Shown one piece after another: positions 58,243-58,746 of a stretch of 64,000 nucleotides of DNA. Positions within the stretch are counted from its first letter, which is position 1, and the number at the start of each line of letters is the position of its first letter. The notes below the pieces were generated by a model, which ran no database searches, was not told the origin of the DNA, and worked only from the letters and a program-made list of their open reading frames with translations. Made by a program: the position numbers and the translations under genes. The DNA lies in sequence record KC295538, one strand, 5' to 3'. The DNA comes from Escherichia phage PBECO4.

Positions 58243-58746
58243 TTATTTTACTTTGACAGTACAGGTTACCTTTTTACCTTGGAACTCGACTTTTTGAACA
58301 TATGAAACGTTACCCAAACGATTAACGAATGATTCCATTGCATTAATATTTGCTTGAATTACTGATGCATTAGTTCCACGTCCTGAAGTTTTCATTACAA
58401 TATGTACATGTTTTCCTTCATCAAGGAATTTTTCAGCACTTTTTGCTTTAATCTGCAAATCATGCTCTTGTGTACCAAAGTTGAATTGAATCTCTTTAAT
58501 ACTCACGGCATTTTGTCGTCGTTTTTTAAGAGAAGCCTTTTCAGCTTGCTTCAACTCATATTTGTATTTGTTAAGATCTGTAATTTTGACAGCAGGTTCA
58601 TCACCTGCACCAATAACCACCAAATCCAATCCTTGATTTTCTGCTAAAGTAAGTGCTTTAGAGATTGCCATGACCTCACTTGCACCTTCCGTAACAAGAC
58701 GTACAGTTTTTGCGGTGATTTCGTTATTGGCAATAATAGATTTCAT
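58243..58746 (-). CDS. infC: translation initiation factor IF-3 homologue
   Basis: 167 aa; alignable along full length to bacterial IF3: N-domain [10 protein letters not shown]...[16 protein letters not shown]...EPAVKI and C-domain [17 protein letters not shown]...[18 protein letters not shown]. Confidence 0.8.

Follow-up and report, generated by a model that had tools for sequence, protein, structure and literature searches.

A translation initiation factor IF3 homolog with a lineage-specific proofreading-motif change and a consensus sigma-70 promoter in the jumbo phage PBECO4

The window analyzed here is a 64,000-nucleotide (nt) stretch of the genome of Escherichia phage PBECO4 (sequence record KC295538), and its minus strand carries, at positions 58243 to 58746, a gene for a homolog of translation initiation factor IF3. 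The first-pass annotation took T4 as its frame of reference, but the genome is neither T4 nor narrowly T4-like; it is that of an Asteriusvirus (121Q/PBECO4-like, RaK2-related) jumbo phage of about 350 kb. Over the 3 kb around the IF3 gene, identity is 99.9% to Escherichia phage SHEFM2K and 98% to phage 121Q, whose orthologue is named gp47, "translation initiation factor IF3," in RefSeq. The gene, the parts of its product, and its upstream signals are located as follows.

58243..58746, minus strand: coding sequence of the IF3 homolog, 167 amino acids (aa) plus stop, ATG start; orthologue of 121Q gp47 and PBECO4 IF3
58534..58728, minus strand: IF3 N-terminal domain (NTD), aa 7-71 (Pfam PF05198)
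58507..58575, minus strand: basic helical inter-domain linker, aa 58-80, including Y63 (Escherichia coli Y75)
58252..58506, minus strand: IF3 C-terminal (30S-binding) domain (CTD), aa 81-165, beta-alpha-beta-alpha-beta-beta (Pfam PF00707)
58375..58392, minus strand: altered proofreading motif K119-T-S-G-R-G124 (E. coli, R129-F-R-G-R-E134), from an ungapped HMMER alignment
58757..58760, minus strand: Shine-Dalgarno (SD) sequence GGAG, 10 nt upstream of the IF3 ATG, read from the sequence
58791..58819, minus strand: sigma-70 consensus promoter TTGACA-17-TATAAT, 12/12 match, with the -10 hexamer ending 44 nt before the ATG

A by-eye alignment in the first-pass annotation had assigned the 167-aa open reading frame (ORF) to IF3 over both domains, and profile and sequence comparisons upheld that assignment. 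Pfam IF3_N (PF05198) matched aa 7-71 with 58.8 bits (gathering cutoff, 26.9), IF3_C (PF00707) matched aa 81-165 with 51.8 bits (gathering cutoff, 34.8), and the NCBIfam infC equivalog TIGR00168 (TIGR00168.2) matched over the full length with 110 bits (cutoff, 60; E value, 1.1e-31). Searching PDB sequences with phmmer returned E. coli-type and Thermus thermophilus IF3 at E values of about 3e-17; BLASTP with E. coli K-12 IF3, translated from the MG1655 locus, gave 40% identity over 120 aa (E value, 3e-18); and the protein matched PHROG 9787, "translation initiation factor," at 1.8e-70. The AlphaFold2 model, built with 26 homologs (mean predicted local distance difference test score, 84.7), comprises an N-domain, a long helix at aa 58-79, and a C-domain whose elements (strands at aa 83-89, 113-119, 147-155, and 159-166; helices at aa 94-109 and 127-144) follow the beta-alpha-beta-alpha-beta-beta order expected for IF3_C. 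In a Foldseek search of the PDB, the best 22 matches were all bacterial or mitochondrial IF3 rather than any unrelated fold, with template modeling scores of about 0.7 for the full-length protein, 0.76-0.80 for the N-domain (1tif, 6o6d), and 0.84 for the C-domain (1tig). Because the hidden Markov models, the predicted structure, and the fold search all agree, the product is a genuine two-domain member of the IF3 family; chance resemblance is ruled out, as every curated cutoff was passed and the fold search was unambiguous.

Residue conservation was read from an alignment of 27 RaK2-like sequences (at least 50% identity), about 145 other IF3 representatives, and E. coli IF3. The phage clade and the distant IF3s share 38 conserved positions, among them (phage/E. 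coli) Y63/Y75, D96/D106, K100/K110, G122/G132, and R123/R133. R25, Q33, and R66 are three residues of the E. coli NTD that matter for contact with the tRNA elbow (PMC9723500); R25 and R66 have phage equivalents in R16 and K54. Net charges for the phage and E. coli proteins are, respectively, -3 and -2 in the NTD, +6 and +6 in the linker, and +5 and +4 in the CTD, with an isoelectric point of 9.54 for both, and this matching charge layout is consistent with retained rRNA binding. The linker combines a helix (aa 58-79), the charge of +6, and Y63, which is conserved across the clade as well as in distant IF3s; a two-domain layout with a basic helical linker is common to the phage protein and to E. 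coli and T. thermophilus IF3 (PDB 8jsg and 5lmn). The phage protein differs from E. coli IF3, to which it is 40% identical, in being without the basic N-terminal extension, and the phage clade has changed K79 to Q, Y70 to L, and F130 to T or A and carries a 3-residue insertion after the motif. N89, at the position of E. coli R99, was considered as a special residue and rejected, since S, T, N, G, or K occurs there in about half of the other IF3s.

The most distinctive change lies in the C-domain motif RFRGR-E, which reads K-x-x-G-R-G in all 27 RaK2-like copies, with the basic first residue and the G-R pair kept. With the motif alignment anchored on the G-R pair (HMMER, ungapped), columns were counted against 114 distant IF3 representatives. 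At the column of E. coli R131, none of the 27 clade members has a basic residue (V, A, S, I, T, Q, or E instead), whereas R or K is found in 104/114 (91%) of the distant IF3s; at the column of E134, 0/27 are acidic in the clade, in contrast to E or D in 92/114 (81%). In T. thermophilus 30S preinitiation complexes, the motif lies beside the start codon, where Arg123-Gly124-Arg125 touch U+2 and the +4 base (PMC5037330); sequence alignment equates these residues with E. coli R131-G132-R133, which is off by one from the numbering in that paper. Swapping the mitochondrial KKGK in for RFRGR loosens the discrimination between AUG and GUG and lifts the inhibition of leaderless mRNAs, R131P favors initiation with non-AUG codons, leaderless mRNAs, and non-3GC tRNAs, and Mycoplasma IF3s have P, F, or Y at position 131 (PMC11775629). 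The motif is thus functional rather than family defining, as mycoplasmal and mitochondrial IF3s also vary there, and given its alteration, proofreading by the phage IF3 probably differs from that of the host factor.

The phage clade resembles the R131P, Mycoplasma, and mammalian mitochondrial (KKGK) factors in that R131 is lost or altered in an otherwise intact C-domain, but F130 and E134 are lost as well, and the residue at 131 is mostly S, V, A, I, or T; mitochondrial IF3 also has terminal extensions, which the phage protein does not. Other phages carry full-length IF3 homologs that are 30-42% identical to the PBECO4 protein, namely, Agrobacterium phage Atu_ph07, Sinorhizobium phage Phosso, and the huge phages LR756500, LR756503, and LR756511 of Al-Shayeb et al. 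(PMC7162821). In Atu_ph07 and Phosso, where the annotated start is GTG, the motif is kept as RFKGRE, and the huge-phage versions read FFKGRM (LR756500), EYKRRE (LR756511), and FFSGRE (LR756503). The idea that every phage IF3 lineage has lost R131 convergently is therefore ruled out, as Atu_ph07, Phosso, LR756500, and LR756511 keep K and only LR756503 has S; the motif change in the RaK2-like copies is real and lineage specific.

The upstream region is equally distinctive. The IF3 promoter is the sole perfect (12/12) sigma-70 site between 54 and 64 kb. The window as a whole has nine perfect TTGACA-N16-18-TATAAT sites, this one included, against a chance expectation of 0.16, and every one of them lies on the minus strand. 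The other eight are as follows.

1181-1208, minus strand: perfect sigma-70 site
6124-6152, minus strand: perfect sigma-70 site
7486-7514, minus strand: perfect sigma-70 site
9333-9360, minus strand: perfect sigma-70 site
24119-24147, minus strand: perfect sigma-70 site
24665-24694, minus strand: perfect sigma-70 site
26526-26554, minus strand: perfect sigma-70 site
40610-40638, minus strand: perfect sigma-70 site

These nine sites look like the strong, early-type promoters that the phage would offer to the host polymerase. Both hexamers of the IF3 promoter are intact in phages ph0011, Ecwhy_1, and Turkey5 with a diverged spacer (completely so in Turkey5), and sigma-70-like sites occur at the equivalent position upstream of IF3 in RaK2, GAP32, and CBB. 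The GGAG of the SD sequence is conserved in RaK2, GAP32, CBB, XaC1, ph0011, Ecwhy_1, and Turkey5, the mRNA leader with its SD is about 38 nt long, and every RaK2-like IF3 copy starts with ATG. E. coli infC starts with ATT in the gene order thrS-infC-rpmI-rplT; since IF3 discriminates against AUU starts, translation of infC is self-limiting. Unlike this bacterial organization of an AUU start within an infC-rpmI-rplT operon, the phage gene has an ATG, its own sigma-70 promoter, and phage genes on both flanks. The consensus promoter, together with an ATG in place of the autoregulatory ATT, points to a gene built for early, strong, and unregulated expression.

Two further observations concern transcription. 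A strong terminator-like hairpin with an 11-bp stem and a trailing T9 run (54686-54710, minus strand) follows closely on a 263-aa ORF. Between it and the upstream IF3 promoter no other such site occurs on that strand, and the IF3 transcription unit could therefore extend from 58819 to about 54686. The SHEFM2K record annotates an RNA polymerase sigma factor (L012 4122-5087) in a region matching the first few kb of the window, and a phage sigma factor would fit a later switch away from the sigma-70 early promoters.

The gene order RNase H, Dda helicase, structural protein, small ORF, IF3, ClpS-like protein, KTSC protein, virion protein is conserved in 121Q (Asteriusvirus), RaK2 (Alcyoneusvirus), GAP32 and CBB (Mimasvirus), and Xanthomonas phage XaC1. 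Ratios of nonsynonymous to synonymous substitution (dN/dS; Nei-Gojobori) for IF3 are 0.047 against ph0011, 0.077 against Ecwhy_1, 0.157 against Turkey5, and 0.169 against RaK2; these relatives are progressively more diverged. The gene is a syntenic core gene of at least four phage genera and is under strong purifying selection. RaK2-like IF3s from phages of different host genera are syntenic and share 50-70% mutual identity. We read the gene as a functional and genuine long-term resident of the RaK2/121Q/GAP32 jumbo phages.

When 1.84 billion representatives were scanned exhaustively with HMMER, 5,675 IF3-like sequences were found, only 5 of them at an E value of 1e-30 or less, and the nearest representatives are metagenomic sequences without taxonomy, several of them on contigs of 190-620 kb. 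Since close representatives are few and metagenomic, the RaK2-like clade is isolated; recent capture from an enterobacterial host is ruled out by these 5 representatives and the 40% identity to E. coli IF3. The best matches cited in record notes are disparate (e.g., Megasphaera and Hydrogenobacter), and any call of a donor lineage is unreliable because identity to everything cellular is 45% or less. In a neighbor-joining tree whose deep bootstrap support is essentially nil, the Atu_ph07/Phosso and LR7565xx huge-phage IF3s stand apart from the RaK2-like clade, and this poorly supported tree suggests several acquisitions of IF3 by phages. Monophyly of the RaK2-like sequences received 0% support in a badly chosen test set, in which the metagenomic sequences P0032, P0033, and P0036 nest inside and P0026 falls outside, so that the figure carries no information.

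The genes named around IF3 and the tRNA genes of the window are listed below.

57684..58229, minus strand: ClpS-like protein, 13 nt downstream of IF3; borderline Pfam ClpS match (24.7 bits; cutoff, 23)
57067..57612, minus strand: KTSC-domain protein, next gene in the block (Pfam KTSC, 51.9 bits; cutoff, 25)
59684..61048: superfamily 1 (SF1)/Dda-like helicase
61055..61501, minus strand: RNase H (126.6 bits), with a TTG start as listed
61480..62001, minus strand: DHFR (103.8 bits)
17026..17104, minus strand cluster member: tRNA(CAT), 79 nt with CCA encoded, G1:C72 paired, AACGA/TCGTT anticodon stem without three G-C pairs
15837-20112, minus strand: tRNA cluster Thr(TGT), Asn(GTT), Met(CAT), Ser(GCT), Ser(TGA), Gly(TCC)

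The first-pass annotation had placed the gene in a block with Dda helicase, RNase H, and DHFR, and gene context and domain matches confirm these neighbors (the helicase as a Dda-like SF1 enzyme); the ClpS-like and KTSC genes directly downstream of IF3 were not named there. The ClpS match spans only aa 74-144 of 181; the gene is probably cotranscribed with IF3, judging from its position, and it adjoins IF3 in all RaK2-like genera examined. Asteriusvirus, RaK2, GAP32, CBB, and Xanthomonas phage XaC1 all share the IF3, ClpS-like, and KTSC trio in synteny, an arrangement that suggests an early translation and proteolysis module. The RNase H and DHFR ORFs as listed overlap by 22 nt (61480-61501), the RNase H of 121Q is shorter with a 4-nt overlap, and the true RNase H start is probably an internal ATG. 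In Phosso (L007 155-2001) and Atu_ph07 (L008 173-1995), both distantly related jumbo phages, IF3 directly follows a gene for a Clp protease ATP-binding subunit, which recalls the pairing of IF3 with a ClpS-like gene in RaK2-like phages. Atu_ph07 carries seven Clp genes (PMC6102473), and given that number, the adjacency there may be coincidental.

A relaxed IF3 might be expected to accompany unusual initiation signals. No phage initiator tRNA was found in the window, where the sole tRNA(CAT) is not initiator-like and is, by its sequence, an elongator Met or Ile2-type tRNA; a phage initiator tRNA matched to a relaxed IF3 is thus ruled out by the G1:C72 pair and the AACGA/TCGTT stem. An additional tRNA-like Rfam match on the minus strand (18838-18916; 29.3 bits against a gathering cutoff of 29) was not called by ARAGORN and may represent a seventh tRNA of degenerate or unusual form; seven tRNAs are reported for phage Sharanji (PMC11895373). 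Start codons, counted for PHROG-supported genes in the 99.9% identical SHEFM2K region from PHANOTATE calls in an AT-rich genome, are ATG in 97/99 and GTG in 2/99, and a GGAG, GAGG, or AGGA core precedes 58% of those genes. Enrichment of non-AUG starts in phage genes is therefore ruled out, and in contrast to mycoplasmas and mitochondria, the phage genome bears no non-AUG, leaderless, or unusual-initiator-tRNA signature. A phage that relies on AUG could equally gain from a surplus of a discriminating IF3, which would disfavor host non-AUG starts and infC.

The presence of an IF3 gene in this jumbo-phage group is already known, contrary to the novelty that the first-pass annotation implied. By tblastn, IF3 homologs occur in 93/50,697 phage records, mostly annotated as IF-3; they are rare across phages and yet a recognized feature of jumbo and huge phages. 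The annotation stands in dozens of GenBank records, including those of 121Q, PBECO4, RaK2, GAP32, CBB, and Sharanji, and the gene has its own PHROG family and a published discussion. IF-3 is listed for CBB, GAP32, 121Q, PBECO4, and RaK2 in the CBB paper (PMC5259590), Al-Shayeb et al. include IF1 and IF3 among the translation genes of huge phages (PMC7162821), Iyer et al. propose that IF3 and KTSC proteins of group 2.2 jumbo phages possibly support phage translation or ribosome rescue (PMC7824862), and the authors of the Sharanji paper write that the function of IF3 in phages cannot be definitively stated (PMC11895373). The RaK2-like IF3s (121Q gp47, PBECO4, RaK2 ORF153, GAP32_313, CBB_318, and Sharanji WNN14575.1) are the same gene, PHROG 9787, with identities to the protein studied here from 100% (PBECO4) down to about 54% (CBB), common synteny, a common altered motif, and no substantive difference. 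Manipulation of start-codon fidelity or ribosome recycling, which the first-pass annotation put forward, matches speculation in these genome papers (PMC5259590, PMC7824862, PMC11895373, and PMC7162821) and is a reasonable reading of the gene. Literature searches found no experimental study of any phage IF3, and the promoter, the contrast between ATG and ATT, and the motif change are absent from the existing records and papers, which only annotate the gene.

We consider it probable, with ample room for doubt, that the gene provides an early, unregulated supply of IF3 that acts on host 30S subunits to aid phage translation and whose proofreading is somewhat changed. Host RNA polymerase would transcribe it right after infection from the consensus sigma-70 promoter, and because of its AUG start and its location outside infC-rpmI-rplT, its expression would escape the IF3-dependent AUU feedback that keeps host IF3 low. 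On the host 30S subunit, the product would occupy the usual IF3 site, its C-domain lying close to the P site and h44/h24/h45 and its basic linker running along the platform. The extra IF3 activity would keep subunits apart, recycle posttermination ribosomes, and speed the formation of 30S initiation complexes on phage mRNAs, nearly all of them AUG-started with an SD sequence; by the counts given above (97/99 ATG, 58% with a strong SD core), these mRNAs suit canonical IF3-dependent initiation. We infer the 30S binding, the timing of expression, and the effect on translation from sequence features.

Several points weigh against this explanation. The phage protein does not retain R129-F-R-G-R133 followed by E134, and with that motif, which the literature links to inspection of the codon-anticodon pair, not conserved, it may not act as a simple extra dose of IF3. 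The tRNA-elbow residue Q33 of E. coli is not conserved in the phage IF3 either. Excess wild-type IF3 can inhibit some mRNAs (PMC11775629), so that more IF3 is not self-evidently beneficial, and no experimental evidence on expression time, 30S binding, or phenotype was found in the literature.

The altered motif is also the starting point for the best placed of the other explanations, which we nonetheless judge unlikely: that loss of R131 and E134 has produced a relaxed or retuned proofreader that alters which start sites or mRNAs host ribosomes accept, as with E. coli R131P, Mycoplasma IF3, or the mitochondrial KKGK variant, instead of merely adding IF3 activity. The clade-wide absence of a basic residue at R131 and of an acidic one at E134 (0/27 each, against 91% and 81% in distant IF3s) speaks for it, as do the relaxed selection seen with the KKGK swap or with R131P (PMC11775629) and the contacts that T. 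thermophilus Arg123, aligned to R131, makes with U+2 and the +4 base (PMC5037330). The genome, however, gives no sign of a need for such a factor, as 97/99 starts are ATG and the tRNA(CAT) is not an initiator, and the transcript of the IF3 gene carries its own SD sequence in a leader of about 38 nt; the direction of any shift in fidelity is, moreover, unreadable from sequence.

We give distinctly less weight to the idea that the factor serves ribosome reactivation, its splitting activity freeing 30S subunits from idle 70S or 100S ribosomes in slow-growing or starved cells or aiding ribosome rescue. IF3's anti-association activity resides in the CTD (PMC9723500), which in the phage protein retains its fold, its charge, and most of its conserved residues, and the related phage Sharanji encodes an HPF/S30EA-type protein (PMC11895373). 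The sequence, however, does not set this role apart from a general supply of IF3, the motif change is left unexplained, and we found no data on the infection of hosts in stationary phase.

Very improbable, in our estimate, is a decoy for host shutoff that occupies the IF3 site on the 30S subunit and is defective at a later step, perhaps acting with the ClpS-like protein as an adaptor in replacing host factors. The altered proofreading motif and the conserved adjacency to the ClpS-like gene would fit such a role, and if discrimination against AUU is kept, translation of host infC, with its ATT start, would be repressed too. A pure inhibitor would, however, also block translation of the phage's own mRNAs, which use the same AUG/SD initiation; strong purifying selection acts on the linker and on both domains, which speaks for a factor that is complete and working; and the Clp adjacency in Atu_ph07, with its seven Clp genes, may be chance (PMC6102473).

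That the gene is a recently captured host gene, a decaying passenger with no role, or an annotation artifact, for which only the general patchiness of phage translation genes (93/50,697 phage records) could be cited, is effectively refuted by the 40% identity to host IF3, the synteny, the dN/dS of 0.047-0.169, and the intact ORF with its conserved promoter and SD sequence.

Beyond an early IF3 supply with some change in proofreading, a bolder and, to us, improbable proposal is that the phage IF3, having lost R131 and E134 and being made from an unregulated early promoter, displaces host IF3 on 30S subunits, represses infC through its AUU start, and retunes initiation toward phage mRNAs; the ClpS-like and KTSC proteins might belong to this takeover module as well. 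In the T4 literature of the 1970s, phage infection is said to alter the messenger selectivity of IF3, and a phage IF3 of altered specificity would, if real, be a modern and genetically tractable version of that idea.

The gene has been annotated for more than 10 years, and its presence is not in itself news. Together, the motif change, the consensus early promoter, and the lost AUU start provide concrete hypotheses on the function of phage IF3. A virus with its own initiation factor could in principle control the choice of mRNA and start codon; if start-site selection is indeed altered by the viral IF3, this would be a new mode of takeover of host translation, and the phage protein would offer a natural variant for the study of IF3 fidelity.

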